A stretch of 64,000 nucleotides of DNA from Bdellovibrionales bacterium (GCA_965219095.1 CBDCMT010000001.1:1344001-1408000), one strand, 5' to 3'; shown: positions 9,681 through 61,661, counted from the stretch's first letter. The notes: generated from the sequence alone by a model not told the origin. Program-made: numbers and translations.

Positions 9681-9784
9681 AGAAACTTTTCTGAGATTAA
9701 CGAGAAAGTGTCCGTTTGTCAAAGTCAGAAAACATGGACCTATCTCCCTAACAACTTAAAATGATAGTTTTTTTAGCCACGCCC

Positions 9785-15344: not shown

Positions 15345-16216
15345 AGACAAATCCAGCAAAATCTTTTTCAGTACCTAGTAAAACCTTTATTTTAGGTGAG
15401 TATGCTGTTTTGCTTGGAAAACCTTGCGTATTTGTTAACACACAGCCTCGATTTCAAATGGTTATTAAAGAAGGCTCAGGGCAATTTAAAAACATGGATG
15501 AGCGAGCCTGCTTATGGATTAAAAAGAAAGCCTCTCATTTTAAAAACTTTGACTTTGAGTTTCAAAATGATTGTTTCTCAGGAGGCTTAGGGGCTTCTAG
15601 TGCTCAATTTCTCATACTTCACCAGTGGATGAAAAAAACAAAGGCTCAAGAACTTTTAGAAGACTATAAAACACAAACAACACAAGATCACAGATCAAAA
15701 TTTTCCCCTAGTGGAGCCGACCTTATGGCTCAGTTCTCAGGGGGTTTAGGTGTTTACAGGCCTAAGCCTTTTAGTTTAGAAACACTAGGCTGGCCTTTTA
15801 AAGAGTATAGTTTTATGATTCTTAGAACCTCTTATAAAATAAACACCTATGAACATTTACAAAATTTAAAAGTCTTGTCCTCTTGTTTCTCAAATAACCT
15901 CTCCGTTCTTATAGAGAAATCCATTGAGGGTTTTAAAAAGGAAGACATTTTTTTATTTTGTGAATCTTTGAAGCAATTTTATAAAAACCTTCTTTTAGAG
16001 GGTTTAGTTTGTGAAATGACAGAGGCTTTAATCGAAGAATTTCAAAGAAGCTGTCTTTTTTTAGCTTCAAAAGGCTGTGGAGCCTTAGGAGCGGATACTG
16101 TTTTTTGTGTTTTCCGAAAGGAAAAAGCTAAGGATGTGAAAGAGTGGTTAAGAAAAAAAGATTTAAGATTTATAGCCTCTGAAGAACATATTTCAGAAGG
16201 CTTAAAAGAGTTATGA
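15332..16216 (+). CDS. GHMP kinase (mevalonate or phosphomevalonate kinase)
   Basis: PSKTFILGEY, GLGASSA, PSGAD, KGCGALGAD; between mvaA and mvaD. Confidence 0.85.
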   Translation: MFKLKTNPAKSFSVPSKTFILGEYAVLLGKPCVFVNTQPRFQMVIKEGSGQFKNMDERACLWIKKKASHFKNFDFEFQNDCFSGGLGASSAQFLILHQWMKKTKAQELLEDYKTQTTQDHRSKFSPSGADLMAQFSGGLGVYRPKPFSLETLGWPFKEYSFMILRTSYKINTYEHLQNLKVLSSCFSNNLSVLIEKSIEGFKKEDIFLFCESLKQFYKNLLLEGLVCEMTEALIEEFQRSCLFLASKGCGALGADTVFCVFRKEKAKDVKEWLRKKDLRFIASEEHISEGLKEL

Positions 16217-17118
16217 GAAAAGTCTTTCGAGTACAAGCACCTTCTAACGTAGCTCTTATTAAATACATGGGGAAAAAAGATTTCTCTTTGAATATACCTT
16301 ATAACTCATCCCTATCCTACACTCTTGAAAACTTTTTTACTTGTGTTGAAATTACAGAGTCTCAAAAAAATCAAGATCACTGGAAACCTCTTAAGAAAAA
16401 GGGGCTTTATCCTATAAGCCTTTCTCAAACAGCCCAAAAAAGATTTCTTAAACACTTTCAATTTTTAAAAGAACATTTAGGGATTAAAGGGGTTTTTACT
16501 GTTTCTTCAGCTAACAACTTTCCCTCTGACTGTGGTTTAGCAAGTTCTGCTTCTAGCTTTGCAGCTCTCACAGCTTGTGTTAATGAAATGTTAGAAAAAA
16601 AACTTGATCCTCTTAAGTTAGCACGTCTGAGTCAAAGAAGTTCAGGTTCATCATGCCGTTCTTTTTTTTCTCCTTGGGTTCTTTGGCAAGAAAAGAGTAT
16701 AAAACCTTTGAACCTACCTGAATTAGAACACAGTCTTATCTTAGTGAATTCTCAAAAAAAGCACATTTCATCTTCTCAAGCTCACAGAAGGGTTTTGACA
16801 AGCCCTTTCTATCCACAAAGAGTTGATAGCACTCAAAAAAGAATTCAAAAGCTCATAGAGTGTTTAAAAAAACACCTCTGGCAAGAGGCTTTTCATATTT
16901 GCTGGGATGAATTTGAAGACATGCATCAGCTTTTTGAGACCAGCTACCCTGCTTTTTCCTATAAAACTTCAAAAACTAGGGCCATTTTAAAAGAGATTAA
17001 AAAAAGATGGAATCAATTAAAAGATGGGCCTCTTGTCACCATGGACGCAGGCCCCAATATCCACCTTTTGTGGAGAAAAAACTCACCCCACAAAGACTCT
17101 TTTTATTTTAAACCATAA
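16213..17118 (+). CDS. mvaD: Diphosphomevalonate decarboxylase
   Basis: NVALIKYMGK, GLASSASSFAA, SGSSCRS, TMDAGPNIH. Confidence 0.93.
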   Translation: MRKVFRVQAPSNVALIKYMGKKDFSLNIPYNSSLSYTLENFFTCVEITESQKNQDHWKPLKKKGLYPISLSQTAQKRFLKHFQFLKEHLGIKGVFTVSSANNFPSDCGLASSASSFAALTACVNEMLEKKLDPLKLARLSQRSSGSSCRSFFSPWVLWQEKSIKPLNLPELEHSLILVNSQKKHISSSQAHRRVLTSPFYPQRVDSTQKRIQKLIECLKKHLWQEAFHICWDEFEDMHQLFETSYPAFSYKTSKTRAILKEIKKRWNQLKDGPLVTMDAGPNIHLLWRKNSPHKDSFYFKP

Positions 17119-42426: not shown

Positions 42427-42738
42427 GTTGAGGCAATCATTGGTCATATGAAAATAGATTCTCGTATGGGAAGGAACTTTTTATTAGGATCACAAGGGGA
42501 TGCTATTAATAGTCTTTTATCAGGAGCTTCTCAAAATTTTAGAAAGTTAATGCTAGAGGTTGCGTCTTTTTTCGTTTTTTTCACTGAAATGGCTTAAAAG
42601 GCCTGTACGCCTTCTTGAAAACTACTGTTTTGTTTAAGTTATGAAAAAATATTTAACCCTCTATAGTAGAAAGTAACAGGAATAAAGATCATACAGCATA
42701 AAAATCCTAGGCTTTTGTCAATTTTTCACGTTCGACTA
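42427..42738 (+). mobile_element. IS5-family right-end fragment
   Basis: Matches 54039-54349, ends CACGTTCGACTA. Confidence 0.9.
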
Positions 42739-42940
42739 AGTTATAGGCTGTGTCAAAAAATGATTTTTTCCTGAGCTTGAACGATTGAACAACCTTTTGC
42801 AGGAAACGGACTGTTATATGACAACTTATGTGACAACTTAGATTTTTTAACTCAATGGGTCATCAAGGTCAATTCATTGTTATTTTTACAATTCTTTTTG
42901 AAAATTATATGTCTACTTCTGTCCACTTCTGTCCACTTCA
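42737..42940 (+). repeat. Cassette promoter module copy A (others about 51244-51448, 54348-54544, 61562-61802)
   Basis: About 200-bp near-identical non-coding block with TGACAACTTA x2 (12-bp period) and GT(C/A)CACTTC(A/T)-type repeats x2-3 (10-bp period). Confidence 0.9.
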
Positions 42941-43133
42941 ATATGTTTGAAAAGCATCTATGAAAAAGTATAAGTACTTTAAGAAGGGAGGAGAATGGTT
43001 CTTAAATAACTGAAGCCAAAAGATAGGGATAAGAGTTCTTTAGCCTAAGTAAATAGAACTCAAAATAAATTAAATAACAGAAGGATGTTAACTTTTTAAG
43101 TTTCACATCTTTCATAGAACATAGGAGAAAAAT

Positions 43134-43802
43134 ATGAAAATTATGAATTTTATTAAAATCATAGCAGTTACTTTTTTAGTATCTCTGTCCAGCTTTGCTT
43201 TTGCCATGGATAAAAGTCACTGTAGTGAAGGATTGCCACTTTGCTTAGAAAAAATATCTGATATATCTGAGAGCACTCTTAATGTGGGGAGAATATTTGC
43301 TGAAACTTTTGATGCAGACATTGGATTTTGGAAGAGTATCTTATCTAGTTGTGGTGGTTCTAGTTGTGAAATACATGCTAGTACAAGGCTTTTAAGGAAT
43401 CTAATAGAACAGGGTAATGACGACAAAAAAGGTATGAGTAGTATTAGTTTAATTCTTTCAGACTGGCTTAGAGACGTTGAAAGTTTTGTTAAAGAATGTG
43501 CTAAAAGTCACTGTAATAAAAAATTGCCAAGTTACATAGAACTAATATCTGATACATCTAAGGATATTCTTGACGAGGGCGTATTCTATTCTAAATATAA
43601 TGATATGTACATCTGGCTTTATGAGAAGGCCTTACCTTTTTGTCAGGATAATGGTCTATGTACAATAGTCTATAAACGAAGCACGGTAAGGAATCTGATA
43701 GAATCTACAAGTAATATCAAAGAAGAAAAAATGAGCATATTTCACTTATTATCAGACAATCTTAAAAACATTGAAAGTTTTGTTAGAGAATGTGTTAAAT
43801 AA
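43134..43802 (+). CDS. Secreted two-repeat cysteine-patterned hypervariable protein, paralog 1
   Basis: AGGAG RBS, signal peptide ending AFA, two ~98-aa repeats KSHC..LP..C..C..RNLIE..ESFV.EC. Confidence 0.88.
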   Translation: MKIMNFIKIIAVTFLVSLSSFAFAMDKSHCSEGLPLCLEKISDISESTLNVGRIFAETFDADIGFWKSILSSCGGSSCEIHASTRLLRNLIEQGNDDKKGMSSISLILSDWLRDVESFVKECAKSHCNKKLPSYIELISDTSKDILDEGVFYSKYNDMYIWLYEKALPFCQDNGLCTIVYKRSTVRNLIESTSNIKEEKMSIFHLLSDNLKNIESFVRECVK

Positions 43803-43816
43803 TTCGATTAATTTAC

Positions 43817-43840
43817 GAGCCTGTAAATTACAGGCTTTTA
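43817..43840 (+). terminator. Hairpin AGCCTGTAA/TTACAGGCT + T-run after paralog 1
   Basis: Stem with a short loop followed by TTTT, 15 bp after the stop. Confidence 0.55.
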
Positions 43841-44144
43841 ATTTACCCGAAAAGCCCCCCATGGAATCCATGCAATTCTTTTGAGGGGCTTAATTATACC
43901 AACTACAGAAATTAATTAAGCATTTTTTATTTTCAAATTCAAAATTTTAGAACTGACTTAAAGCTTCAGAGGTTACAAAAAGACGATTCAAGCAGTTCAT
44001 CTAAGGAAAGTTTATAGGCTTTCTGATTTTTATAAAACTTAAGATTTCCATAAACCTGTTGAGAATCTGTTTTGTCTCAGCTTGGCATTACAACTGCGCT
44101 AAGACTTGATTATTGGAAATTGATTGTAAGAGCCAGTTTATGAC

Positions 44145-44789
44145 TCAATGTACTTGATGCAGATGATAAACCATACTAAGAGTACAGGTGTCATAAATAG
44201 CATAGAGGTGTCGTAAATTAATTGACTTATAGGAATTTTGGAGGGTGGCGTTTTGAAAACGTCTATATTCATCATCAGTCATTTTGCAAGAATGATGAAA
44301 CAAATCTTTATATTTTTCAGAAAAATCTCCTCTGTTCAAATAAACCAAATCTTGCCTTATAGAAAATGATTTTCCTGAGTAAATCGTGTTTAAAAAAAAG
44401 TCCATGTTAAAATCTTTTTCTTTTCTTGAAAAATCATAAATGTACTCTGAGGATAATTCCTTTAGGCTTTCACATTTATGAATCATGCATTTTAAAATTA
44501 AATGATTTTTTGCTGCCTCTACAGTATTTCCATATCCTATTTTTTTTTCTGATTGTGTTGCAAACATACTCTTAAATGGAAAAAGCTTTGTAAATTGATC
44601 TACAGGAGTAGCCGTGTATAGAATTTTTTGATCCTTTTCTAGATCATAAACAGACTTTAGAAGAGAGTCTGTATCCTTTAACAGAAAATGCATTAAGATC
44701 TCTCTTTCTCCGTTCTGTTTTCGATATTGAGAGAAACCATTCAGTTCGAAAAAAAACATGATTAAGACAAAAAATATATATTTTTTCAT
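44145..44789 (-). CDS. Secreted hypothetical protein (copy 1)
   Basis: Signal peptide; protein identical to 56459-57103. Confidence 0.85.
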   Translation of the reverse strand: MKKYIFFVLIMFFFELNGFSQYRKQNGEREILMHFLLKDTDSLLKSVYDLEKDQKILYTATPVDQFTKLFPFKSMFATQSEKKIGYGNTVEAAKNHLILKCMIHKCESLKELSSEYIYDFSRKEKDFNMDFFLNTIYSGKSFSIRQDLVYLNRGDFSEKYKDLFHHSCKMTDDEYRRFQNATLQNSYKSINLRHLYAIYDTCTLSMVYHLHQVH

Positions 44790-44811
44790 AAATTACCATC
44801 CCCCTGAAAGT

Positions 44812-45945
44812 CTAGGCCTCGCCCCCCCCATACAAAATTTTTGATGTAGAAAAAAAGGCCCCTAATTGTATTTTGGATATTTGACGACAAAGATCACTCC
44901 ATCCATCTTTAAGGTTTACTTCTTTTAGCAATTCAAGGTTTTCTTGTGTTCGAGATTCAGCCTCCCTACACGTTAAAGGAGCGCTAGGAGGATTCCATTT
45001 ATAGAGAATGTGATTTTGAGTCACTTCATTATAAAGTAATTTGAAGTCTAAAAGAGCTCCGTTACCAAGAAGACCGTTCCATATGGCTAGAGAAAAAGGT
45101 TTTATTTTTTTTATAATTTCATCTATTTTTTTAACACAAGATGTTTCTTGTAAAAAACTTAAAGTTTCTTTTGAGTAAAAATAAGAAACATCTTTGTCAA
45201 TCATATCAGAAATTTCATTAATGATATTCCACTCAAGCTGAAAAGCTCTTAAGCTAGAAAAAGCGGACTGAAGAACAGGAGAGCCTAATAAAGGATCAAA
45301 TTTTTTCAGTTGATTATAATGGGGAGATGTTATTTTATCTGCAAAATGGGATTGATATTGAAAACCAGCATCTAATTGTATGGATAATTCGTGGACTAAA
45401 ATGGGAATTAACCTTTTTTCAGAGAAACTACTTTCATATAAAATGATTTCTCCTGTATGAGACCAAGAATCAAAAATATAAGAACTCTCTGAAAGGAAAT
45501 CTTCATTATTTATATAAAAATATTTCATCTTTTCATAAGTTGGAAAAAAAGTTGTTTTGTTAGATTGTAGTTTTACCTCAATAGGAAAGAAAGGTTTATA
45601 GGCCTTCTTTTTTGGAAGGGGTGCCTCTTCGCAGCCTAATAAAATATTAGAAATGTCGGACTCACCTAATCCTAAATAGATGTTGGCTATTTTTTTATCA
45701 CATAACAAAGTTTGACGAAGCATATAGTAGAGAGCTGTAGGGGTTGAAAGTATTGTCTTATAGGCAGAAAGTATTTTTTTATAATTTTCACTGCCCCTTT
45801 CAATTTCTCTCTTTTTTTCATGACTATGAAAAGAAATTCCATGAATCTTTTGACAACTATGCCGCCCTGTTTCAACAGAAGCGGCCTCCCTATTAAAAAA
45901 AGAAAAAAGCAGAACAAAAATAAATAAAAATTGAAAAGACGTCAT
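44812..45945 (-). CDS. Secreted hypothetical protein with HEL motif (copy 1, C-terminus shifted at G8)
   Basis: Signal peptide, ILVHELS, near-identical to 57107-58258. Confidence 0.85.
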   Translation of the reverse strand: MTSFQFLFIFVLLFSFFNREAASVETGRHSCQKIHGISFHSHEKKREIERGSENYKKILSAYKTILSTPTALYYMLRQTLLCDKKIANIYLGLGESDISNILLGCEEAPLPKKKAYKPFFPIEVKLQSNKTTFFPTYEKMKYFYINNEDFLSESSYIFDSWSHTGEIILYESSFSEKRLIPILVHELSIQLDAGFQYQSHFADKITSPHYNQLKKFDPLLGSPVLQSAFSSLRAFQLEWNIINEISDMIDKDVSYFYSKETLSFLQETSCVKKIDEIIKKIKPFSLAIWNGLLGNGALLDFKLLYNEVTQNHILYKWNPPSAPLTCREAESRTQENLELLKEVNLKDGWSDLCRQISKIQLGAFFSTSKILYGGGEA

Positions 45946-47312
45946 TTAACTCCTAATTTTATATGTTGGTTTTTTGATATTTTTATTTTCTGAACTTTGA
46001 AAACAGACTCCTCTCTTAAAGTTAATCCATAAATTCTTTTGTTTAATCTCTTAAAAAGGATTCTTGTTTTATCAATGGCCATAAAGCTAAGGGATTCGTT
46101 ATAGAGCAATTGGATCACTTCTTCCATTGAACAAGAGGTTTTTTCAGAAAAAATTTGAAAAACTTTTTCTACAACTTCAATGTTTTTTAAAAATACTTTT
46201 TGGTCTTTGAACACAAGACTTCCATCTCTCTTATGGACATAAATATAAAGCTCATCTAAGGGAATTTGTAAGTCAAGTTTTTTCCTCCAAAGATTTCTTG
46301 TTTTTTGAGAAAACTTATATAGAAGTAAATTTACAAAGTCTAACAAGGAGTCCTTGTTCTGAGCTCTTCTTAGAGATAGTACAGAAACTTTTAAAACCTC
46401 GGAAAAAATCATTTTGTTCTTTAGCTCCACAACTTCTCTAAGAGATAAGCTGTAATTTTTATTCTCAAGAAAATTAAGAAGAATTTTTTCATACAAAGTT
46501 AAAAATTCACTTTTCAGTATAGGCTTAATTGTCTTTAGATCTATGGGCTTATCATGGATCAAACAATGTTCAATGAATTCTGTCAGAAACAAATTGATAT
46601 CTGTTGGGTTTTTTATTTTACTGCTTTTCAAGACATTAAAAAGTCTTGCCTCTGCAAGACTTTGTTTTTTCACTCTCAACTCAGCTAAGAATAGAGCATG
46701 CTGTGTTTCAATGAATAAGGAATGATCACCCCCTATATCCGAATACTCTAATAAATTGAAATAAGCAGAGTTAATGTCTTGGGTCGTTCCACAAACGGAC
46801 TCTATTCTTAAAATTTGCGATAAGCAAAGAAGAACATCTTCTGTTTTTTGTCCTTTAAATATTTTCAAAAGATGTTTATAACTTTTTAAAGCTTCATAAA
46901 TATACCCATCAAGTTCTAGGAATTTGTTAATGTTGATCCTTGTTCTAAAAACAGTTCTTGGTTCTAAAAGAAAATGGTTTTTTCTAAGGTATTCTTCTAT
47001 CTTCTTCCATTTTTTTCTCCAACTTGAAAAATCTGACATTAAAAGGAATAAATTAGCCTCTTCACACAGCATTTTTACATGAGGAGGATGCCTTTCCTTG
47101 TGACCTTTTATAACCTCTAAAGCTTTTTCATATTTACCTTGAAGTAAAAAGTTTTTAGATTTTAAAAAATTTTTTTCACTCATGAGCTCATGATTTAAGC
47201 CTTCATCTTGAATGGTGTTGATGATGTTTCTATTTTTCTCAAAATCAGAATCTTCCAAAGCTTTATAAGCAGTTTGGAGTTTTTTTACTAAGCTCTTATT
47301 ATTGATATTCAT
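45942..47312 (-). CDS. TPR-like + C-terminal winged-helix putative transcription regulator
   Basis: Helical repeats (GKYEKALEV, GYIYEALKSY); C-terminus resembles OmpR-type wHTH (SMEEVIQLLY...TRILFKRLNKRI). Confidence 0.7.
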   Translation of the reverse strand: MNINNKSLVKKLQTAYKALEDSDFEKNRNIINTIQDEGLNHELMSEKNFLKSKNFLLQGKYEKALEVIKGHKERHPPHVKMLCEEANLFLLMSDFSSWRKKWKKIEEYLRKNHFLLEPRTVFRTRININKFLELDGYIYEALKSYKHLLKIFKGQKTEDVLLCLSQILRIESVCGTTQDINSAYFNLLEYSDIGGDHSLFIETQHALFLAELRVKKQSLAEARLFNVLKSSKIKNPTDINLFLTEFIEHCLIHDKPIDLKTIKPILKSEFLTLYEKILLNFLENKNYSLSLREVVELKNKMIFSEVLKVSVLSLRRAQNKDSLLDFVNLLLYKFSQKTRNLWRKKLDLQIPLDELYIYVHKRDGSLVFKDQKVFLKNIEVVEKVFQIFSEKTSCSMEEVIQLLYNESLSFMAIDKTRILFKRLNKRIYGLTLREESVFKVQKIKISKNQHIKLGVK

Positions 47313-47518
47313 CTTTGTATGCCTTCTTCTGAAATTCCTTCTCTGAATAAATCGTCTTAAATCTTATTTCCCTAAAACACAGTCAATTTTATCTAGGCCC
47401 GCAAACACCCTTCTATTCTAGCTTATCTTAGAGGATGTCCGTAATCCCGTTAGGGTTTCAGAAGGGACTTTTTCATAATTAAGCTATCTCCATTTGTTTT
47501 TCAAGGGTTATTTTATTT

Positions 47519-49911
47519 GCATCCTCGAAAGAATCTGTGGGTTCCCGGAGGTTCTGGCAGTTTTCCAAGGTTATGATATAAGGCGATTTTTATAGCTTTA
47601 GAGGTTCTAAAGCCGTAAGATTTTCTCATAGTGAGTTTTACTTTGTTGTTTAAACCCTCTACAATCCCTGAGGAGAAGGTTTTTTTAGCCTTGAAGTAAT
47701 TAAGAATAAGTAGCTTATGTCTTTGTATGGTTTTTGCTTTTCTTTTCATAGGTTCAATTTTTGAAAGCATGACTCGTCTCGTCCAACTGTCTATAAATTT
47801 ACCAGCCCAAGTTGGTGGAACATAGGTCCATAACTGTCGGAAGTCTTCTTTTAAAAAATAACAGCGGATACTTTTTAAATTGTACTGTATTAAATGCCTT
47901 AATTTTACTTTTTCATAAGATTTTAAATTTTCTGCATTTTTTAACAAGGGCCATCTAGCTTTTGTTAAAAGGGGTTCATACCCGTCTTCTTTCATTTTTT
48001 TGTGTTCTGAAGCTCTCACTTCATCTAAAGCCTTATTGAGTCTTGCTACGATATGAAACCGATCTAATATGTGTAAAGCTCCACTTGCCCTCTCCTTTAT
48101 GACTTTTAAATAAGGCTTCCACATATCAGAACACACAAACCGTATATCTTTTGACTTCTCTCCTAGGGCGTGTCCTCATTTGCCTAGACCTTTTTCAAGA
48201 CCTTAGGCCTGTTGAATATTTATAAAGATTGTAAAAAGCTCATAACAAAGGGGGTATTTATGTTAAGAAAAGTTTTAACAGATTCTATGTGAAAGGATCT
48301 GGAAGCTATTATAAGAGGGAAGGGCTGTTATCATTCAGCAAACAATAGAAATATTATGGAAGCCATTTTATGGAAATTACGTACAGGCAGTCCGTGGCGT
48401 GACATTCCTGAACAGTTCTGTCCTTGGAAGAGAGCATATAATCGCTTTAATAGGTGGGCACAAAAAGGGTTATGGAATGATTTTTTTTTGCTTTACAAGA
48501 AGAAGTTGATACAGAGTGGGTGTCCATCGACGGAAGTTACGTATCGGTTCATCAGCATGCTAGTGGAGCTCGGCGTGGAGAAAGTCGTGCTGTGGGAAAA
48601 TCTAGAGGTGGATCCACAACAAAAATACACATGGCCTCCGATGCGCATGGAAATCCACTCTGTTTTAAAATCACTGGGGGTGAAGTCCACGACAGTCAAG
48701 TTGCAGGTGATTTAATTGATGAGTTTCATAGTGAGTATTTGATTGCTGATAAGGCCTATGATTCAGATGAGATACGAGATAAAGCTCATAGTAAGAAGAT
48801 AAAGCCTGTAATACCGAGACGAAAAAATAGCAAAAAGAAAAATAAAGATTTTGATCGTCATATTTATAAATCTCGACATCAGATAGAAAACCTTTTTGCT
48901 CGTCTTAAACATTTTAGAGGCATTGCTACTCGATTTGAAAAGCTTGCTAGAAATTTCAAAGCTATACTATCTATAGCGTGTATGTTTATTTGGCTTAAAC
49001 TTCAAAGCAAAGGTCCAGTCAAATGAGGACACGCCCTAGTAAATCAAAGAATTTTCTAAAACTCTTTTCTGTTCTTTTCTCTCCTATCCACAACAAGCGT
49101 ACACGGGTTTTGCTTATTTCATAGACTAAGGTGAGATACTGATGGTTCTTTTTCCATTGTATTTCATCTACACCTATAGCTTGTATTCCCTTTAAAACCC
49201 TTTGTTTTAAACCATATTCTACGACCCATTCTACCGAAGCATAGACCTGATTCCAACTGACATGAAACTTACAAGAAACCTCTTTCCAAGACAGGTGACG
49301 ACACCAGTCTGCTAAGTACTTCATGTAAAAGATCGTTAAACTCTTCTTACCATCGGCCCAAGGTAAATGTTCAACTTTTACCCCACAGCAAGGACAATTG
49401 ACTCTTCTTACAGCATAAACAAAGAACACCCTGTAACTTAAAATAGGAAGGGATTCAAAGTCCCGTGATGATTTACTGCTGTCATACACTGAACAGGGCT
49501 TCTTACAAACACTACAAAAAGCTTGGCCATTTTTACGAGCCTTAATAGGAACATTAATTGACTTTCTATCTTTTGAAAAATAAATGTCTTCGTACACAAA
49601 AGACTTCCATCTTAAACAATCATTTAGTATAGTCTTCAAAAGCATCTCTTCCCTCCTTTTTTTTTTTTTTGAATAACATTTTAAGGCATCTGGGAAGTAG
49701 GTGCTTCTTTTTTAAAATTTTAATGTAACACAGCAAATAAAAGCAAATAAAATGAATGTTTTTGAGTTCAATCACCGGAGGTGATAGAGGCCAGTAAGGG
49801 CCTCAAAGAACTCAAAAATACAAGATAGGATGTCTTACTCTTACTTTGATTAATATGAGCCTTTTTGGGGGATTTCTACTACTTTTCACCCACAGATTCC
49901 CGGGAGGAGCC
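47519..49911 (-). mobile_element. ISL3 nested in IS256, split by IS5
   Basis: IRs, 8-bp TSD TTTTATTT. Confidence 0.93.
48166..49036 (+). mobile_element. IS5-family (IS427-like, two-ORF) IS
   Basis: IR GGGCGTGTCCTCATTTG, inserted at CTAG with TA duplicated; WRDIP, SRGGSTTKIH, ADKAYD, YKSRHQIE; early TGA at 48290. Confidence 0.92.
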
Positions 49912-51649
49912 TTTTATTTATTTCTTCTATAAATAGAGGGATTTGTTTATGTCCCCTGATAGTGCGAAATTTTTTCTCGACATGTAACAAGGAAGCTGCG
50001 ACCCATAAGGAGATTTGTCGAGGATTTTTTTTCCAATTCTTCACTCTTCCTGTTTGTTGACGAACGATAGAGAAGGCACTTTCTATTGGGTTCGTAGAGC
50101 TTAAAGTCTTTCGTAAAAGAGGAGGAGTTTTTAAACGAAGGACTGTCAATGTTTCTAAATGGGCTTCTTTAAGACTTTCTGAAGCTTCAGAGCTTATTTT
50201 TTTAAGCCACTTCAGAAGACTATCATGTTCTTTTTTAGCACTTTCATAATCTTCCAATCCATGAAGTTTTTTCCAACGTCTTTTAAACTCTAAGTGCTTT
50301 TCTTTGGGAAGATAGGAGAGGATATTCCTCTCCTTATGATGAATGCATCTTTGAACCAAAGAGTTCTGTCCAAAAACATCATTGATGGATTTGCGAAGAG
50401 CTTTGCTTCCGTCAGTCACAAACAGTTTTTTGCTATCTTGTGGAAGACCACGTTCTATAAGATTTTGCAAGAGGTCTGTCACGATGACAGCGTTCTCTGT
50501 AGAGCCTTCTCTGAGACCTAAAATCATCTTTTTTCCTTCACTTGTAATTCCAAGAACGCAAATCACTGTTCTTTTTGAAAATTCAATGCCGTCAATCATT
50601 AAAGCCACGAAACTTTCTTGTGAAAGATTCCGAGACTGAATGGCTTCCAAAGACTTTTGACAACTCATCTTGAAAGCTTTACTGACAGAGGATTTTTTTA
50701 AACCTAAGCCGTCTTCCAACTTCCTTTGTAAAGGCTCATAGTTTCTGGTGCTGACTCCTCATAGCCCTCATTACATCTTCACAGAGAAGATCAAAGCTCT
50801 GGAGAACTGTATAACTCTCCAGAGGAACTTCCTCTTTGTTTTTTCTAAGACGAGGACGTTGAACTCTTATCCTCTGTCCTTGAAGAATAACAGATCCTTT
50901 TCCACTTCCTCCTCTGTGACAGAGACCCTCTGACTTTTTGTGGGAAAAGGGCTTTCCGCAGAGTCTTTTTACTTCCTCTTGGAAAAGATCATGGACTAAT
51001 TTCAGCGTTGCTCCTTCAAGCTGCATAGCAATAAGCTGGCGAATCTTCTCATGTTTATTTTTTACCATTTGTAACTGGGATTGATATTGTGTATCTTTCA
51101 TTTGGGGCTCCTTTTTGGTTTGTTTATAATACCCTGAGTTTAGCTCAGGGGAGCCCCTTCTTCAAACCCTAACGACTTTACGGACAATCTCTTATCTTAT
51201 CTACTTAAAGAGAGCCTAAAATCTAATGATTAGGTTTATATCATAAGTTATAGGCTGTGTCAAAAAAATTATTTTTTCCTGAGCTTGAACGATTGAACAA
51301 CCTTTTGCAGGAAACGGACTGTTATATGACAACTTATGTGACAACTTAGATTTTTTAACTCAATGGGTCATCAAGGTCAATTCATTGTTATTTTTACAAT
51401 TCTTTTTGAAAATTATATGTCTACTTCTGTCCACTTCTGTTCACCTCAATATGTTTTAAAAGCGTCTATCAAAAAGTATAACTACTTCAAGAAGGGAGGA
51501 GAATGGTTCTTAAATAACTGAAGCCAAAAGATAGGGATAAGAGTTCTTTCCCCTAAGTAAATAGAACTCAAATGAATTAAATAAATTAAATAACAGAAGG
51601 ATGTTAACTTTTTAAGTTTCACATCTTTCATAGAACATAGGAGAAAAAT

Positions 51650-52324
51650 ATGAAAATTATGAATTTTATTAAAATCACAACAGTTACTTTTTTAGTATCT
51701 CTGTCCAGCTTTGCTTTTGCCATGGATAAAAATTACTGTAGTGAAGGATTGCCACTTTGCTTAGAAGAAATATCTTATATATCTAAGCAGTTTCTTCAAC
51801 TAAGAAAATCAAATTCTAAAGAGTATGATGCAGACATTAGATTTTGGAAGAATCTCTTATCTATTTGTGATGGTTCTACATGTACAATAGATGTTAATAG
51901 AAGGACTTTTAGGAATCTGATAGAAGTTAGCAATGACTCAAAAGAAGCTACAAGTAGTATTGTTTTAAAGCTTTCAAACCGGCTTAGAGACGTTAAAAGT
52001 TTTGTTAGAGAATGTGTTATAAATAAAAGTCACTGTAATAAAAAATTGCCAAGTTACATAGAACTAATACATTCAGTATCTGAAGAGGTTCTTATTATAG
52101 TAGGCAGATCCCATTCTAAATATACGGATTCAAGAATCAGTAGTTATGAGAGGGTCTTATCTTTGTGTGGTGCACCTCGATGTAGAGTAACTTATAACCT
52201 AAGTGTGGTAAGGAATCTAATAGAAATTACAAGTGACTTCAAAAAGGCTCTAAATGAGTATGATTTATATTTCTCAAAAACTCTTAAAAACATTGAAAGT
52301 TTTGTTAGAGAATGTGTTAAGTAA
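51650..52324 (+). CDS. Secreted two-repeat cysteine-patterned hypervariable protein, paralog 2
   Basis: Same signal peptide, framework and cysteine pattern as 43134-43802. Confidence 0.88.
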   Translation: MKIMNFIKITTVTFLVSLSSFAFAMDKNYCSEGLPLCLEEISYISKQFLQLRKSNSKEYDADIRFWKNLLSICDGSTCTIDVNRRTFRNLIEVSNDSKEATSSIVLKLSNRLRDVKSFVRECVINKSHCNKKLPSYIELIHSVSEEVLIIVGRSHSKYTDSRISSYERVLSLCGAPRCRVTYNLSVVRNLIEITSDFKKALNEYDLYFSKTLKNIESFVRECVK

Positions 52325-52783: not shown

Positions 52784-54349
52784 TAGTCGAACGTGAAAAA
52801 TGCACAAACAGCTAAAAACACTTGTTTTTTTGTAATTTTTGCATAAAAATAATTGCAAGGAAGTGGAAAAACAGATAAAAAACCTTGCAAAACAGAAAGG
52901 AAAAAAGATGAGGCCAAAAGACATGTTCAGCACACAAAAGAGAAGCCCTCTTAATTTTAGAGTAAACGACATTGTTCATAAGAAGCATCCGCTTGTCATT
53001 TTAGCTAATAAAATAGACTGGGATCGTTTTGATAAAGATTTTGGTTCGAAGTATGATGAAAAAAAAGGTCGTCCAGGTCTTTCAACTCGTTTAATGGTGG
53101 GACTTCAGTGCTTGAAATACATTTATAATTTAAGTGACGAGAAGACAATAGAAATGTTCAAAGAGAGTCCTCAATGGCAGTATTTTTGTGGTCAGCCTTT
53201 TTATTCTTATGAAGATCCCTGTGATAGAAGTTCATTGACTAACTGGAGAAAGAGGATGGGGGCTGAGAAGATAGAAGTTCTCTTAGAGGAAACCATTGAT
53301 TTAGCTTTGAGAGAGGATTTTGTAAAAAAAAAAGAGTTTGAGAATGTAGTTGTTGATACAACTGTTCAAGAGAAAGCAATAGCTTTTCCTACAGACAGCC
53401 GTCTTTATTACAAAGCTTTAAAGACTTTAGTTCACAGGGCTAAAAAAGAGGGTTTAGTTTTACGTCAAAGCTATAAAAGAAAGGCCAAGGAGTGTTTGTT
53501 TAAGAATGCTCGTTATGCTCATACAAGAAAAATACGTTTAGCAAGAAAACAGCAAAGAAAGCTTCATACTTATCTAGGTCGTGTGATAAGAGATGTTACA
53601 AGAAAAGGAGGTCCTAAGTTCTTGGAAGAGAATACATCTTTAAAAAGATGTTTATCTTTATGTGTAAGAATTTATAACCAAAAAAGAGGGGATAAGAACA
53701 AGGTGTATAGTGTTCATGCTCCTGAGGTTTATTGCATAGGGAAGGGCAAAGCCCATAAAAAATATGAATTTGGCAATAAGGTGAGTGTGGCAACTTCATC
53801 AAAAAATTGCTGGGTTTTAGGGGTAAAGTCATTTGAAAAAAATGTATCAGATGTTCACAGTTTAAAGCCAGCCTTATCTCAAGTTGAATCCTTAACAAAG
53901 GTTAAGGCAAAAAATTTGTATGTAGATAAAGGTTATCGTGGCAAAGAGCATCATCCTTCGGGAGTTAATGTTCATATTGGGGGAATGAGTAAAACATTAA
54001 GTCCCTACAAAAGAAAACTTCACAGAAGAAGAAGTTCAGTTGAGGCAATCATTGGTCATATGAAAATAGATTCTCGTATGGGAAGGAACTTTTTATTAGG
54101 ATCACAAGGGGATGCTATTAATAGTCTTTTATCAGGAGTTTCTCAAAATTTTAGAAAGTTAATGCTAGAGGTGCGTCTTTTTTCGTTTTTTTCACTGAAA
54201 TGGCTTAAAAGGCCTGTACGCCTTCTTGAAAACTACTGTTTTGTTTAAGTTATGAAAAAATATTTAACCCTCTATAGTAGAAAGTAACAGGAATAAAGAT
54301 CATACAGCATAAAAATCCTAGGCTTTTGTCAATTTTTCACGTTCGACTA
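52784..54349 (+). mobile_element. Complete IS5-family IS (transposase about 52908-54248)
   Basis: IR (TA)GTCGAACGTGAAAAAT, flanking duplication within TAAGTTA; VDTTVQEK, KGKAHKKYEFG, VDKGY, VEAIIGHMK. Confidence 0.95.
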
Positions 54350-54658
54350 AGTTATAGGCTGTGTCAAAAAAATGATTTTTTCCTGAGCTTGAACGATTGA
54401 ACAACCTTTTGCAGGAAACGGACTGTTATATGACAACTTATGTGACAACTTAGATTTTTTAACTCAATGGGTCATCAAGGTCAATTCATTGTTATTTTTA
54501 CAATTCTTTTTGAAAAATTTATATGTCCACTTTAGTACACTTCAGTCTGTTTTAAAAGTGATCTCATTTGATTATGTTTGTGCTGGAATGTGTATACAAA
54601 TCAAAATGTGTAATGCAAATCACACATCATTTATAAAAACAAAAAAAAGAGAATAAAA

Positions 54659-55724
54659 ATGAATATAAAAACTTTTATACCACTTATATGTACTGGGCTC
54701 TGGGGATTTTCATCTCATGCTGTGTCCTATCACCACTCTGAATCTAAACACATAAAAGCTCTCCAGAATCCTCTTGTTTGCGATTTGATTCCTTATATAC
54801 CCAAATTCCACGCTAAAAATGATCACTACATTGCTCTAACATAGGATAAGTTCCATAAGACAGAAATTTTCCAGTAAAAATGGGGTTATTGCCCTTTTTT
54901 TCTGTGAAAAGCTCTTGCCATTCTATTTTTAAGTAGTTACCATAATGGTAACTACTATGAGTTTTATAAAGAAGATTAAAAGAGGAGGCAGCACTTATTT
55001 AGCAGAGGTGAGAAATATCCGAGTCAAGGGCAAGGTCGTACATCAGAATTTTAAAAGGAGTTACAAATTTAAATCCTGTACGACACTGGCTTTGCAACAG
55101 AGTAGTGGCTCATTTTTTTATTTGTTATTTATCTTATCTTCTGCTTTCCGTATTAAAGTTACATCTCTACAATTTGGATTTGGATATTTCGCCCATTCAA
55201 GCATTAAAAGAGCTAGAAAACCTGTACAAAGTTTATTTTTCTGATAAAAAGAAAAAAGTTCAAATGTCTCGGACAGTTGCTCTAAGCAAAATTCAAGAAA
55301 ATATCATAAAGGCTATTGACAAAAAGCTTCTCAGAGAAATGAAAACCAGTAGTGATCATTTTTAGCGTGGAATTTGGGTTATATAGTCTTACAAAAAAAT
55401 GAAGAAGCTATGAATAGCTATGAAATCAAAGACAGAGCAGGTATCTTATGGCATGGAAGTACTGTGGAGGTTATTGATAACAAGGTTTATACTGGCCTTG
55501 GCGTTCAGTTCGTCAAGGTTAGAGTTGTAAACAACTTGATTTCAAAATTAGATCGAGACAGGAAGCAAATACTTCTTCAAAATGGTAGCATTGGTCATCA
55601 AATGTGTGAAACTTGCACAATGGACAAAGTGTATCTAGCTAAAGTTGGAGAGGTAGGTTTTATAGACTTAGTTAGTGTGGGTCAAGAAACTGATTTACAT
55701 AGAAAACTTTGCGAGAGGATTTAA
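54659..55724 (+). pseudogene. Secreted protein (possibly SH3-like) split by a mini IS1634
   Basis: Removing 54800-55378 plus the TSD restores ...CDLIPYIVLQKNEEAM... in frame. Confidence 0.8.
54800..55378 (+). mobile_element. Internally deleted IS1634-like element
   Basis: 30-bp IR CCCAAATTCCACGCTAAAAATGATCACTAC, TTATATA duplicated, transposase N-terminus joined to its C-terminus (AHFFICYLSY). Confidence 0.88.
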
Positions 55725-56200: not shown

Positions 56201-56287
56201 CCTCCTCAAAAGAATCTGTGGGTTCCCTGAGGTTCTGGTAGTTTTCCAAGGTTATGATATAAGGCGATTTCTAGAGCTTTAGAGGTT
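56201..56287 (-). mobile_element. Diverged ISL3 right-end fragment
   Basis: CCTCCTCAAAAGAATCTGTGGGTTCCC... Confidence 0.85.
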
Positions 56288-56458
56288 TTATAAAAAGACA
56301 ATTCAAGCAGTTCATCCAAGGAAAGCTAATAGGCCTCTGATTTTTATAAACCTTAAGGTTTCCATAAACCTGTCAAGAATCTGTTTTGTCTCAGCTTGGC
56401 ATTACAACTGCGCTAAGACTTGATTATTGGAAATTGATTGTAAGAGCCAGTTTATGAC

Positions 56459-57103
56459 TCAATGTACTTGATGCAGATGATAAACCATACTAAGAGTACA
56501 GGTGTCATAAATAGCATAGAGGTGTCGTAAATTAATTGACTTATAGGAATTTTGGAGGGTGGCGTTTTGAAAACGTCTATATTCATCATCAGTCATTTTG
56601 CAAGAATGATGAAACAAATCTTTATATTTTTCAGAAAAATCTCCTCTGTTCAAATAAACCAAATCTTGCCTTATAGAAAATGATTTTCCTGAGTAAATCG
56701 TGTTTAAAAAAAAGTCCATGTTAAAATCTTTTTCTTTTCTTGAAAAATCATAAATGTACTCTGAGGATAATTCCTTTAGGCTTTCACATTTATGAATCAT
56801 GCATTTTAAAATTAAATGATTTTTTGCTGCCTCTACAGTATTTCCATATCCTATTTTTTTTTCTGATTGTGTTGCAAACATACTCTTAAATGGAAAAAGC
56901 TTTGTAAATTGATCTACAGGAGTAGCCGTGTATAGAATTTTTTGATCCTTTTCTAGATCATAAACAGACTTTAGAAGAGAGTCTGTATCCTTTAACAGAA
57001 AATGCATTAAGATCTCTCTTTCTCCGTTCTGTTTTCGATATTGAGAGAAACCATTCAGTTCGAAAAAAAACATGATTAAGACAAAAAATATATATTTTTT
57101 CAT
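56459..57103 (-). CDS. Secreted hypothetical protein (copy 2)
   Basis: Identical to 44145-44789. Confidence 0.85.
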   Translation of the reverse strand: MKKYIFFVLIMFFFELNGFSQYRKQNGEREILMHFLLKDTDSLLKSVYDLEKDQKILYTATPVDQFTKLFPFKSMFATQSEKKIGYGNTVEAAKNHLILKCMIHKCESLKELSSEYIYDFSRKEKDFNMDFFLNTIYSGKSFSIRQDLVYLNRGDFSEKYKDLFHHSCKMTDDEYRRFQNATLQNSYKSINLRHLYAIYDTCTLSMVYHLHQVH

Positions 57104-57106
57104 AAA

Positions 57107-58258
57107 TTACCATCCCCCTGAAAGTCTAGGCCTCGCCCCCCCATACAAAATTTTTGATGTAGAAAAAAAGGCCCCTAATTGTATTTTGGATATTTGACGA
57201 CAAAGATCACTCCATCCATCTTTAAGGTTTACTTCTTTTAGCAATTCAAGGTTTTCTTGTGTTCGAGATTCAGCCTCCCTACACGTTAAAGGAGCGCTAG
57301 GAGGATTCCATTTATAGAGAATGTGATTTTGAGTCACTTCATTATAAAGTAATTTGAAGTCTAAAAGAGCTCCGTTACCAAGAAGACCGTTCCATATGGC
57401 TAGAGAAAAAGGTTTTATTTTTTTTATAATTTCATCTATTTTTTTAACACAAGATGTTTCTTGTAAAAAACTTAAAGTTTCTTTTGAGTAAAAATAAGAA
57501 ACATCTTTGTCAATCATATCAGAAATTTCATTAATGATATTCCACTCAAGCTGAAAAGCTCTTAAGCTAGAAAAAGCGGACTGAAGAACAGGAGAGCCTA
57601 ATAAAGGATCAAATTTTTTCAGTTGATTATAATGGGGAGATGTTATTTTATCTGCAAAATGGGATTGATATTGAAAACCAGCATCTAATTGTATGGATAA
57701 TTCGTGGACTAAAATGGGAATTAACCTTTTTTCAGAGAAACTACTTTCATATAAAATGATTTCTCCTGTATGAGACCAAGAATCAAAAATATAAGAACTC
57801 TCTGAAAGGAAATCTTCATTATTTATATAAAAATATTTCATCTTTTCATAAGTTGGAAAAAAAGTTGTTTTGTTAGATTGTAGTTTTACCTCAATAGGAA
57901 AGAAAGGTTTATAGGCCTTCTTTTTTGGAAGGGGTGCCTCTTCGCAGCCTAATAAAATATTAGAAATGTCGGACTCACCTAATCCTAAATAGATGTTGGC
58001 TGTTTTTTTATCACATAACAAAGTTTGACGAAGCATATAGTAGAGAGCTGTAGGGGTTGAAAGTATTGTCTTATAGGCAGAAAGTATTTTTTTATAATTT
58101 TCACTGCCCCTTTCAATTTCTCTCTTTTTTTCATGATTATGAAAGGAAATTCCATGAATCTTTTGACAACTATGCCACTCTGTTTCAGCAGAAGTGGCCT
58201 TCCCATTAAAAAAAGAAAAAAGCAGAACAAAAATAAATAAAAATTGAAAAGACGTCAT
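57107..58258 (-). CDS. Secreted hypothetical protein with HEL motif (copy 2, G7, ends GGARPRLSGGW)
   Basis: 383-aa ORF; stop lies 3 bp before the next ATG. Confidence 0.85.
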   Translation of the reverse strand: MTSFQFLFIFVLLFSFFNGKATSAETEWHSCQKIHGISFHNHEKKREIERGSENYKKILSAYKTILSTPTALYYMLRQTLLCDKKTANIYLGLGESDISNILLGCEEAPLPKKKAYKPFFPIEVKLQSNKTTFFPTYEKMKYFYINNEDFLSESSYIFDSWSHTGEIILYESSFSEKRLIPILVHELSIQLDAGFQYQSHFADKITSPHYNQLKKFDPLLGSPVLQSAFSSLRAFQLEWNIINEISDMIDKDVSYFYSKETLSFLQETSCVKKIDEIIKKIKPFSLAIWNGLLGNGALLDFKLLYNEVTQNHILYKWNPPSAPLTCREAESRTQENLELLKEVNLKDGWSDLCRQISKIQLGAFFSTSKILYGGARPRLSGGW

Positions 58259-59215
58259 TTAACTCCTAATTTTATATGTTGATTTTTTGATATTTTTATT
58301 TTCTGAACTTTGAAAACAGACTCCTCTCTTAAAGTTAATCCATAAATTCTTTTGTTTAATCTCTTAAAAAGGATTCTTGTTTTATCAATGGCCATAAAGC
58401 TAAGGGATTCGTTATAGAGCAATTGGATCACTTCTTCCGTTGAACAAGAGGTTTTTTCAGAAAAAATTTGAAAAACTTTTTCTACAACTTCAATGTTTTT
58501 TAAAAATACTTTTTGGTCTTTGAACACAAGACTTCTATCTCTCTTATGGACATAAACATAAAGCTCATCTAAGGGGTTTTGTAAGTCAAGTTTTTTCCTC
58601 CAAAGATTTCTTGTTTTTTGAGAAAACTTATATAGAAGTAAATTTACAAAGTCCAACAAGGGATCCTTGTTCTGAGCCCTTCTTAGAGATAGCACAGAAA
58701 CTTTTAAAACCTCGGAAAAAAGCATTTTTTTCTTTAGCTCCACAACTTCTCTAAGAGATAAGCTGTAATTTTTATTCTCAAGAAAATTAAGAAGAATTTT
58801 TTCATACAAAGTTAAAAATTCACTTTTAAGCATAGGCTTAATTGTCTTTATATCTATGGGCTTATCATGGATCAAATAATGTTCAATAAATTCTGTCAGA
58901 AACAAATTGATATCTGTTGGGTTTTTTATTTTACTGCTTTTCAAGACATTAAAAAGTCTTGCCTCTGCAAGACTTTGTTTTTTCACTCTCAACTCAGCTA
59001 AGAATAGAGCATGCTGTGTTTCAATGAATAAGGAATGATCACCTCTTATATCTGAATACTCTAATAAATTGAAATAAGCAGAGTTAATGTCTTGGGTCAT
59101 TCCATAAACGGACTCTATTCTGAGAATTTGCGATAAGCAAAGAAGAACGTCTTCTGTTTTTTGTTCTTTAAATATTTTTAAAAGATGTTTATAACTTTTT
59201 AAAGCTTCATAAATA

Positions 59216-59285
59216 TAGCGAATACGCTTAGATTCTCCGGTCGATTCTCTAGAGAAAAAAACTGAAAACCTAAACGGAAACACTA
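59216..59285. mobile_element. 70-bp IS630-derived mini element
   Basis: TAGCGAATACGCTTAGATTCTC...GAAAACCTAAACGGAAACACTA with TA duplication. Confidence 0.75.
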
Positions 59286-59289
59286 TATA

Positions 59290-60989
59290 CCTAAGTTTGA
59301 GACAATTTTTACTCACTAGGATTTAAGAAAGTATGGAAGTGCGATTTCTCAAAATTCCTAAATCTATGGAATTCAGTATTTTTTCTTGCTTCTTATTTAA
59401 AGTAACAGTTTTCATCAACCTTACTTTTTTCTTTTTATCAGAAAAATAAACATTATACATTGTTTCCAGCTCCTCAATGGCTTTTTGTGGAGATATTCCA
59501 ACATTTTTATGATTTAATCTCATTTTTAAAATTGATAATAAAAGATAGGATAAATAACATATGAACACATGGGCTTTAACTTTTTTGTTTAGCCAAAATC
59601 TGATAGGTTGTATATTCGAGATACCTTTCAATACTTTAAAAGCTTGTTCTATAACATCCTTGTCAAAATAAATCCTTACCATTTCCTTTTCTGAAATGGA
59701 TTTCTTTGTGCAGAAAAGACAAAAAAATCCATCCAACTCTTCCTCTCTTTTTAAAAGCTCTGTCCTGATTCTGCCAGTGGCTGTTAAATATCTTTCAAAA
59801 CGTTCATTTATCTTTTTCCCTTTTTTTCTTAATTCTTGAGCCTCAAGAAGGCCCAATCTTCTTGATTCTGTTTCCTCTAATTTTTTCGATGCATTATAAC
59901 AAATTACCAATTTTCCACTAATTGAAGCTAATTTATAAGCAACTCCTCCCACATAAAAACTACTCTTATTGACTCGGACTATGCTTGATATGTTGTCCAG
60001 GAATTTTTTATTTGAAAACTTTCTTATAATAGCCTTTTCTTTCTCTCGAATGGGCAAGCCACATAAGGTATTTAAGCCTATTTCTCTAGAGGACATCAGA
60101 TTTTTTTTAGAAACTACACCCCGATCATAAACAAACAGTTGAGGACGAATTTGACTTTTTCGTAAATACTCTAGAACGCATGAAAGAGTTCTTGCGTCAT
60201 GAATATTTCCATCAAATGTTTTGTGAAATACAGGAACTCCTTCATTTTGTGTTGTCACCAAAGCTATTTGAATAAGATCATTTTGTCTTTGACCATCCTT
60301 ACTTCTTCCTTGTTTTCCCATTGAGCAGGCCTTTCCATGAAAATAAGTGTTTGTAGTGTCATAAACTAGACCTTTGGTATCTAATTTATATGTTCTCTTG
60401 ACCTTATTAAAGATGGTTTTCTGATAAGCTTCTATTTGCTCATCGTTAATATCGACTTTCTGTCAAAGAATCTAAGTTTAGAAGCAAATTTAAATCAGTT
60501 CTTTCATACCATTTTGGCATATTCCGTAAGCTTTTATAATTTATACAGTGAGCGTAAGTCATGCTTAGTATTTCGTTGGAGTATTCCCCCTAAAATTTCT
60601 GGAAGATTTATTTTTTTTGCAATGCTGTGAAAGGCAAGCAAGGGACCATAGATTTTTAACCATCCATTTGAATATCTTTTGATGAAAGAGAAATGACAGC
60701 CTCTTTATTAACTTCTTTTCCAATATGACGGATGTATTTCTGAACAACTTTACCTTTAACCCATCGATTTTCTACTTCTGCAAGATAAACGACACCACCC
60801 TTTTTGTATCTTCTAATAAAGCTCATGAACACCTCCTAGTGAGTATAATACTCACTATAAACCTAAGAAAAGTCAAGGCTTATTTTTCTTTGGATTGAAA
60901 ATTCCTGTATTTCCCCTATAGAAATGGAGTTTCTTTGAGGTGACCTAAAATGGAAAATCCTAGTGAGTAAAATTTATCTCGAATTTAGG
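59290..60989 (-). mobile_element. IS1634-family IS, frameshifted transposase (59323-60826)
   Basis: About 33-bp imperfect IR, TSD TATATA; YDTT, G.SKD, DRG, IEQAFKVLK, KAHVFICYL. Confidence 0.9.
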
Positions 60990-61661
60990 TATATACCCAT
61001 CAAGTTCTAGGAATTTGTTAATGTTGATCCTTGTTCTAAAAACAACTCCTGGCTCTAAAAGAAAATGGTTTTTTCTAAGGTATTCTTCTATCTTCTTCCA
61101 TTTTTTTCTCCAACTTGAAAAATCTGACATTAAAAGGAATAAATTAGCCTCTTCACACAGCATTTTTACATGAGGAGGATGCATTTCCTGGTGGTCTTTT
61201 ATAACCTCTAAAGCTTTTTCATATTTACCTTGAAGTAAAAAGTTTTTAGATTTTAAAAAATTTTTTTCACTCATGAACTTATGATTTAAGCTTTCATCTT
61301 GAATGGTGTTGATGATGTTTCTATTTTTCTCAAAATCAGAATCTTTCAAAGCTTTATAAGCAGTTTGAAGTTTTTTTGCTAAGCCCTTATTGTTGATATT
61401 CATCTTTGTATGCCTTCTTCTGAAATTCCTTTCTGATAAATCGTCTTAAATCTTATTTCTCTAAAGCACAGTCAATTTTATCTAAGCCTGCAAACACCCC
61501 TCTATTCTGGCTTATTTTATCTACTTAAGAGAACCTAAAATCTAATGATAGGTTTATATCATAAGTTATAGGCTGTGTCAAAAAAATGATTTTTTCCTGA
61601 GCTTGAACGATTGAACAACTTTTTGCAGAAAACGGACTGTTATATGATAACTTATATTTTT

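Follow-up and report, generated by a model that had tools for sequence, protein, structure and literature searches.

Two paralogous genes in a Bdellovibrionales genome share almost all of their upstream DNA and differ at a large part of the residues that they encode. What has rewritten these proteins, and what might they do? An earlier note on the locus had described secreted paralogs with extreme non-synonymous diversification on a fixed cysteine scaffold and had proposed strong diversifying selection or cassette conversion as the cause. We followed up both proposals in the 64,000-nucleotide stretch of DNA that carries the two genes (the window) and in the genome to which it belongs (G000).

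Results

Three gene copies among transposase remnants

The features of the locus are listed below, in window positions except for gene C.

42737..43133, plus strand: region upstream of gene A common to gene B, with the ribosome binding site AGGAG at 43123-43127
43134..43802, plus strand: gene A, open reading frame of 222 aa
about 43134-43205, plus strand: signal peptide of gene A, ending in AFA, by inspection only
43212..43502, plus strand: repeat 1 of gene A, made of a helix, a cysteine-bracketed loop with a short strand, and a helix
43503..43799, plus strand: repeat 2 of gene A
43817..43837, plus strand: terminator-like hairpin 3′ of A, also found 3′ of C and deleted 3′ of B
43894..43961, no strand assigned: short high-copy element resembling an IS end, downstream of A and also of B, with 98 hits in the genome
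44145..47312, minus strand (duplicated unit 44145-47430): three convergent genes next to A, namely X of 214 aa, Y of 377 aa and Z of 456 aa (TPR-like)
47513..51101, no strand assigned: transposase remnants between the two units (open reading frames, multi-copy profile)
51244..51649, plus strand: region upstream of gene B common to gene A, with AGGAG at 51639-51643
51650..52324, plus strand: gene B, open reading frame of 224 aa
51728-52018, plus strand: repeat 1 of gene B
52025-52321, plus strand: repeat 2 of gene B
G000:C2:169206-169865, minus strand: gene C, a third copy outside the window

Both open reading frames described in the earlier note, A and B, were recovered together with their shared upstream DNA, which is 95% identical over 406 nt. 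The two proteins begin with a hydrophobic N-terminus ending in AFA, which we read as a signal peptide by inspection. With the signal ending there, the first cysteine of the A-family protein is residue 30, and not mature position 1 as in a lipoprotein. Searching the rest of the genome (blastn and tblastn) yields exactly one further copy, gene C, which is 85% identical to B and 56% to A; all other matches are the three genes and their internal repeats. A, B and C each have the upstream region and a full open reading frame, and their upstream regions diverge by 2.5-3.4% (319 nt).

A lies tail-to-tail with X-Y-Z, B adjoins a fragment of X-Y-Z, and C sits amid transposases with none of X, Y and Z beside it. 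This placing points to IS-mediated duplication. The X-Y-Z unit is duplicated at 56272-61519 (98% identical, the second Z copy interrupted by a transposase) and served as a co-duplicated control: the X duplicates show 0 differences in 645 nt and the Y duplicates differ at 8 of 373 codons. Of 200 other genomes from the order, 3 also carry the Y-Z pair, which consists of a secreted protein with an HE motif and a TPR-like protein. X-Y-Z is probably not part of the A/B/C system.

Some further observations concern the window itself. At position 44822 a run of C has one extra base, which makes the end of Y shorter than that of the duplicate; the base is absent from the contigs of run X1, and an assembly error or a collapsed copy may explain it. 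At 54348-54838 the first half of the region upstream of A and B is used again, before a different short secreted open reading frame (start at 54659), which is cut by a transposase. Finally, positions 14061-17118 hold, by reading of the open reading frames, mevalonate-pathway genes, which we take to encode HMG-CoA reductase, a kinase and diphosphomevalonate decarboxylase.

Two repeats with invariant cysteines

A, B and C each encode two repeats of 97-99 aa. Across all six repeats 24 columns are invariant and four cysteines per repeat are retained, which bears out the fixed cysteine scaffold proposed for A and B; a ninth cysteine, C37, is variable and is replaced by tyrosine in C. The two repeats of A are identical at 37 of 97 residues and have 6 silent differences compared to 21 expected at saturation. 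Repeat 1 and repeat 2 types form separate clades (support 99/99). All indels among the genes are in frame, and under random change the frame stays open in about 1.4% of trials (probability of no stop ~0.014). These last two results indicate that the gene has been kept functional.

Positive selection acts on a class of codons

For repeat 1, a hand alignment in the earlier note had given 41 amino-acid changes in 84 codons and a single synonymous change among the 43 conserved residues, and our alignment returns exactly these counts (codons 40-123). For repeat 2, where about 3 synonymous changes had been claimed, we find 45 amino-acid changes and 3 silent changes in 53 conserved codons. Over the whole gene (221 aligned codons), A and B differ by 90 amino-acid changes and 4 of 131 conserved codons are silently changed. 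Counting conserved-residue codons only overstates the effect, and whole-gene dN/dS is modest at 1.6-1.9: the NG86 method gives dN 0.31 and dS 0.16 (ratio 1.94), and the M0 model an omega of 1.65 that is not significantly above 1 (p = 0.06).

About 30% of codons make up the class that carries the selection signal of A, B and C. Based on a custom implementation of the codon models with three sequences and NEB posteriors, M2a is preferred over M1a (2dL = 54.6), with omega2 = 16.9 at 30% of 218 codons and 56% of codons fitting an omega of about 1. A model of all six repeats gives omega2 = 8.3 at 52% of 94 codons (2dL = 48). Multinucleotide mutations can mimic selection, according to 10.1101/165969; we therefore added such changes to the codon model, and 2dL is still 24.0.

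In a symbiont genome undergoing decay, relaxed selection or hot spots of mutation might also replace many residues; G000 is IS-rich with many broken genes, and the M0 omega is not significantly above 1. Against this, a free omega beats a neutral hot-codon model, in which a faster-mutating class of codons has omega 1 (2dL = 11.5, p = 0.0007, omega2 = 6.2), so that the neutral model is rejected at p below 0.001. Moreover, the genes are without stops or frameshifts and the neighbouring duplicates have barely changed. We regard decay as an extremely improbable explanation. Together, the M2a value of 16.9 and the value of 6.2 in this control define the range of omega 6-17 that we give for the selected class; the dN/dS above 1 foreseen earlier thus holds for this site class and does not reach significance for the whole gene.

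The deficit of silent changes is evident without codon models. A neutral simulation with an equal number of base changes puts the expectation for the two divergent tracts at 14.1 silent-only codons, compared to 3 observed (p = 0.00025). Silent changes affect 3 of 59 conserved codons in the tracts compared to 1 of 72 in the frameworks, a difference that is not significant (p = 0.33). Repeat 2 of A carries 20 of the 28 codons with a positive-selection posterior above 0.9.

One aspect of the data resists a simple account. Silent divergence is about equal in all pairs (A-B 4/131, A-C 6/125, B-C 6/192), as is upstream divergence, yet most replacements are common to B and C. Pure divergence offers no neat explanation for this: either there was a burst of replacement in very little silent time, or conversion homogenised the flanks or the B/C coding region.

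A-B ranks first among the paralogs of the genome

We compared A-B with 210 paralog pairs of G000 that show 30-55% amino-acid change, drawn from 53 families of at most 12 members; larger families, mostly transposases, were left out. The silently changed share of conserved codons has a median of 0.365 over the 210 pairs and is 0.03 for A-B. Only three pairs fall below this value, all involving fragments of 114-125 codons. In a rate-controlled test on the longest pair per family (50 families), A-B comes first with an LR of 20.3. Strong diversifying selection on A and B, as proposed in the earlier note, is therefore upheld by M2a, by the multinucleotide and hot-codon controls and by the first rank in the genome.

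Five further families exceed an LR of 6.6 with omega above 1, all of them signal-peptide-like by a crude rule. Across families, selection and signal peptide coincide in 6 of 33 compared to 0 of 17 families, which is not significant (p = 0.08), and the link of selection to secretion across the genome is only suggestive.

Among these other families, a ten-member ankyrin family with signal-peptide-like ends reaches a family LR of 15.2. One of its pairs (G000:C1:7698-9179 and C2:2051406-2052896) differs by 26 amino-acid changes with 0 silent changes in 463 conserved codons; repeat shuffling may contribute to the pattern of this family. Four more secreted-looking families pass the rate-controlled test with LR 7.3-13.2 (G000:C2:208367-209089, 297645-299135 and 97554-103610; C1:52370-53602).

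Selection without a new mechanism of variation

Next, we consider the second cause proposed in the earlier note. If A and B were old duplicates partly homogenised by gene conversion, or products of cassette or retroelement variation, there would be little true selection to explain. Long identical blocks (up to 51 nt) at the 5′ end, the repeat junction and the 3′ end suit conversion, as do the upstream divergence, which does not group B with C, and 6 swapped sites between repeats. However, conserved tract codons are nearly all identical, with the 3 silent differences among 59 comparing to ~34 expected if codon bias had masked saturation. Conversion therefore cannot give the codon pattern, and it may have shaped the flanks.

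Cassette conversion is not supported: in G000 we found only three full genes, no silent donors and no reverse transcriptase. No template repeat outside the genes was found by blastn and tblastn of the genome. Promoterless or partial donor cassettes were likewise not found: a repeat HMM run on 22,667 six-frame open reading frames gives three hits, and the next best has E = 0.27. There are 0 matches to PF00078 (RVT_1) in the 94% complete genome, and the control was positive in 3 of 14 genomes. Adenine-specific change is also absent, with 56 of 154 differing sites lacking adenine in either gene; adenine is present at 102 of 280 invariant tract sites. With no reverse transcriptase or template repeat found in the 94% complete genome and no adenine bias, a diversity-generating retroelement target is not supported.

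The CTA/CTG variant in the RNLIE motif is indeed swapped between the repeats of A and B, but the repeat exchange that it was taken to hint at is not supported. Among the repeats of the two genes (A1, A2, B1 and B2), informative sites divide into 30 vertical, 5 within-gene and 6 swapped and scattered. Given the scatter of the swapped sites and the separate clades of the two types of repeat, homoplasy is the best reading of the CTA/CTG swap. As a sole cause, conversion or cassette variation is largely refuted, and we hold that alternative to be very unlikely. Our verdict is strong selection without a new mechanism of variation.

In contigs from four runs, all belonging to a single study, the variable segments of A show no differences in three runs, and all 38 of the 38 variants listed on B are alleles of A or C. 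These contigs are of low depth and rare variants are dropped, so that they are weak evidence on population variants. One contig of run X2 looks like an A/C chimera, and we attributed it to the collapse of an assembly bubble.

Selected codons cluster on one side of predicted helices

AlphaFold2, given all three sequences, returns a model of four long helices plus two short strands (pLDDT 88, pTM 0.80). A single repeat alone reaches a pLDDT of only 66, while two copies of one repeat give a homodimer score of 0.79 compared to 0.01 for the best control; runs agree on at least 97% of contacts and the pLDDT of the partner is at least 89. In calibration, 20 of 30 solved homodimers attained this mark, as did 1 of 23 monomers; these counts apply only roughly here. 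In the predicted dimer, helix 1 packs against helix 2 of the other copy, and the strands of the loops pair up. Each repeat is thus predicted to be a helical hairpin, and the two hairpins to pack into one long four-helix bundle.

We let the interface of the single-repeat dimer stand in for the one between the two repeats. Of the 28 codons with a posterior above 0.9, 20 lie outside it, compared to 55 of 164 others (p = 0.00025; p = 0.0009 for the helical belt only). At a posterior of 0.5 the depletion is not significant (p = 0.15). One helical side holds 16 of 20 selected helix positions, with significant helical periodicity (p = 0.002 and 0.03), and the selected stripe is offset by 60-90 degrees from the hydrophobic moment. 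The check that had been suggested, whether variable sites map to one helical face, therefore comes out in favour of such a face, mostly outside the predicted interface. On this model, the stripe would form the outer rim of the two-helix face of each hairpin, with two variable faces back to back.

These data also bear on escape, in which an exposed protein would keep a constant job at a conserved base while its outer faces change to evade recognition by phage or host. The surface bias of selection also fits escape, the base is nearly unchanged (in its middle, 0 of 25 codons exceed a posterior of 0.5), and fast evolution is general among secreted proteins, as PMC3506625 describes. Nevertheless, a stripe on one side suits a binding face more than escape all round, and the base would appear conserved even without constraint because silent divergence is low, with the 56% of codons at an omega of about 1. 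Escape also usually leaves allelic diversity, and none is seen in the contigs of the four runs of that one study, from which rare variants are dropped. We consider escape unlikely.

A scaffold with no homolog found outside G000

The earlier note had called the scaffold uncharacterised, and our searches agree: it is an exported scaffold (signal peptide by inspection) for which no Pfam or NCBIfam family and no homolog outside G000 was found. A has no significant match to either collection. A word-index protein search returned 3 hits among 274 candidates, all of them G000's own, and a profile of the single repeat gave 0 of 1832, while for longer forms the result was 0 of 7993. Among 1.84 billion representatives, HMMER retrieved the own protein and just 3 others, which we rejected because on inspection they are repetitive unrelated proteins. 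The ESM Atlas, searched twice, gave no homolog, nor did 40 relatives, 108 genomes of the family, or metagenome and viral contigs, plasmids and phages, and PDB sequences hold no match to A, B or C. Among 400 genomes of the phylum, 6 have weak partial matches (E 0.001-0.007, two with internal stops), which we rejected as chance. An Rfam search of the window was blank, and a promoter scan stayed at chance level. A literature search found no paper on the A/B/C family, which is unnamed and so not searchable by name. Fold searches return designed or generic bundles (best Z 13.7-14.1, rmsd 2.6-2.8, 145-163 aligned) and no specific family. Both the scaffold, without homolog in any collection searched, and the lineage are new; selected secreted paralogs as a phenomenon are already known.

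Elsewhere in the genome, three identical copies of a 142-aa protein with a signal peptide (G000:C2:442378-447759; L039:4379-4807, 6854-7282, 9332-9760) have the same four-cysteine spacing as one A/B/C repeat. Each copy lies tail-to-tail with an open reading frame for a trypsin-like protease, in a tandem amplification between transposase remnants. The 142-aa protein is possibly a single-hairpin relative or a protease inhibitor. As a homolog it was rejected (hhalign probability 0.1, shuffle p = 0.26), and it has no homolog in 250 genomes or in the metagenome scan.

Periplasmic self-protection is a different role to consider: the bundle would bind and block toxins that enter or hydrolases that the cell itself secretes, with diversification of the copies to cover new targets. 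A signal peptide without a lipid anchor suits the periplasm, PMC4686830 provides a Bdellovibrio precedent in Bd3460, and the look-alike protein does lie beside a protease. But no neighbour co-diverges with A, B and C (the X copies are identical and the Y copies differ at those 8 codons), C has none of X, Y and Z beside it, and the look-alike has no sequence link to the family. This role therefore appears somewhat unlikely to us.

Comparison with known systems

The closest parallel in evolution is with the cysteine-rich Hcp/Sel1-like proteins of Helicobacter pylori, likewise a lineage-specific expansion of secreted helical repeats in a host-associated bacterium. As described in passages of PMC1941758 and PMC3608669, their helices are disulfide-bridged and positive selection between paralogs falls mostly on surface residues. 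A, B and C share positive selection between secreted paralogs (signal peptide by inspection), and with four invariant cysteines per repeat and DsbA-family proteins in G000, disulfide bonds may form. Unlike Hcp, they have no Sel1 match in Pfam and no homologs found elsewhere, and they consist of two long hairpins in a predicted single bundle instead of a solenoid of short repeats. The selected class comprises 30% of codons at omega 6-17, whereas for hcpG alleles the same passages give 2% at 4.5.

The best natural bacterial fold matches are from Borrelia: 8ec3_A (Z 10.6, rmsd 3.3, 142 aligned) and 7rps_A (Z 9.8, rmsd 4.5, 141 aligned), scores that are within the generic helical-bundle range and below several designed bundles. 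Borrelia BBK32, FbpB and FbpC are exported helical-bundle domains that bind host protein and inhibit complement, according to PMC6445466 and PMC10413161. Unlike A, B and C they are lipoproteins, and there is 7-8% identity and no sequence match.

Two systems come from Bdellovibrio. The MAT adhesive fibres, from the same order as the source of A, B and C, are a surface recognition repertoire of trimeric fibres with mosaic variation at the tip, as set out in PMC10769870, whereas A, B and C are predicted to be small helical bundles, changed by point replacement. A matches no fibre family in Pfam and, at 222 aa, is predicted to be a compact bundle and not a long trimeric fibre. Bd3460 is a helical binder of protein targets, as proposed here for A, B and C; it has an ankyrin fold and binds conserved self enzymes, according to PMC4686830, while A, B and C are without ankyrin match or co-diverging neighbour.

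Engineered binders offer a further analogy. Affibodies are engineered two-helix binding surfaces. In the RECK CC4 scaffold, an antiparallel helix pair of a disulfide-bonded four-helix bundle was randomised by phage display into general binders, as PMC11107207 reports. Both are artificial libraries of unrelated sequence, whereas A, B and C would be a natural, two-faced version.

A genome resembling those of host-associated relatives

G000 comprises 3.11 Mb in 2 contigs, with 34% GC and 94% completeness. The closest RpsB match is a Bdellovibrionales MAG (62%), and the source bacterium is likely a Bdellovibrio relative. About 21% of the genome falls within open reading frames that belong to families of over 12 members, for the most part transposases. 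Ankyrin matches number 45. Flagellin was not found in the search of G000 and is present in 34 of 60 genomes of the family.

For export, the genome encodes three secretins (GspD-like, PilQ-like and Tad), whose neighbours we read from the open reading frames as type II, type IV pilus and Tad genes; no T6SS sheath was found in G000, and a nucleotide-transporter search that gave no match anywhere is uninformative. A flagellar export remnant lies at G000:C2:942582-950337, with FlhA identified by Pfam and FliA-, FlhF-, FlhB-, FliR- and FliP-like proteins by reading, and might serve as a secretion route.

Passages of PMC9944714 describe sponge-associated Bdellovibrionota as AT-rich, non-motile and ankyrin-rich. 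G000 resembles them, and based on these genome features its bacterium is likely host-associated. Knowledge of non-motile, host-associated Bdellovibrionota comes chiefly from their genomes, according to the same passages of PMC9944714, which leave open what these bacteria interact with.

Discussion

We favour, with moderate confidence, the reading that A, B and C encode an exported two-repeat protein, predicted to form a disulfide-stapled four-helix bundle, whose outer faces were rewritten by positive selection after duplication, each copy likely binding a different, fast-changing partner of host or prey; the binding function is our inference. The family likely goes back to one hairpin that formed homodimers; internal duplication would then have fused two such hairpins and freed the two faces to diverge separately. 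The protein would be exported by Sec, acquire its disulfides from DsbA, and then be released via the type II system or displayed at the surface, although the signal peptide alone could equally fit a periplasmic location. Its outer faces may bind molecules of host or prey, and possibly two partners at the same time. IS-mediated duplication would have spread the copies. Duplication inside the gene, followed by duplication of the whole gene, would have allowed selection to retarget each face.

A bolder version, which we put forward tentatively and consider possible, is that of a natural bispecific affibody-like binder: a fused hairpin dimer with two independently retargeted two-helix faces back to back, used by a host-associated Bdellovibrionales in an arms race with its animal host or prey, and the extreme of a secretome-wide pattern in G000.

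The predicted scaffold tolerates replacement of ~60% of residues between repeats and is thereby a candidate natural binding scaffold. For the organism, so strong a signal of selection is the mark of a molecular conflict, and A, B and C can readily serve as baits for the partner.
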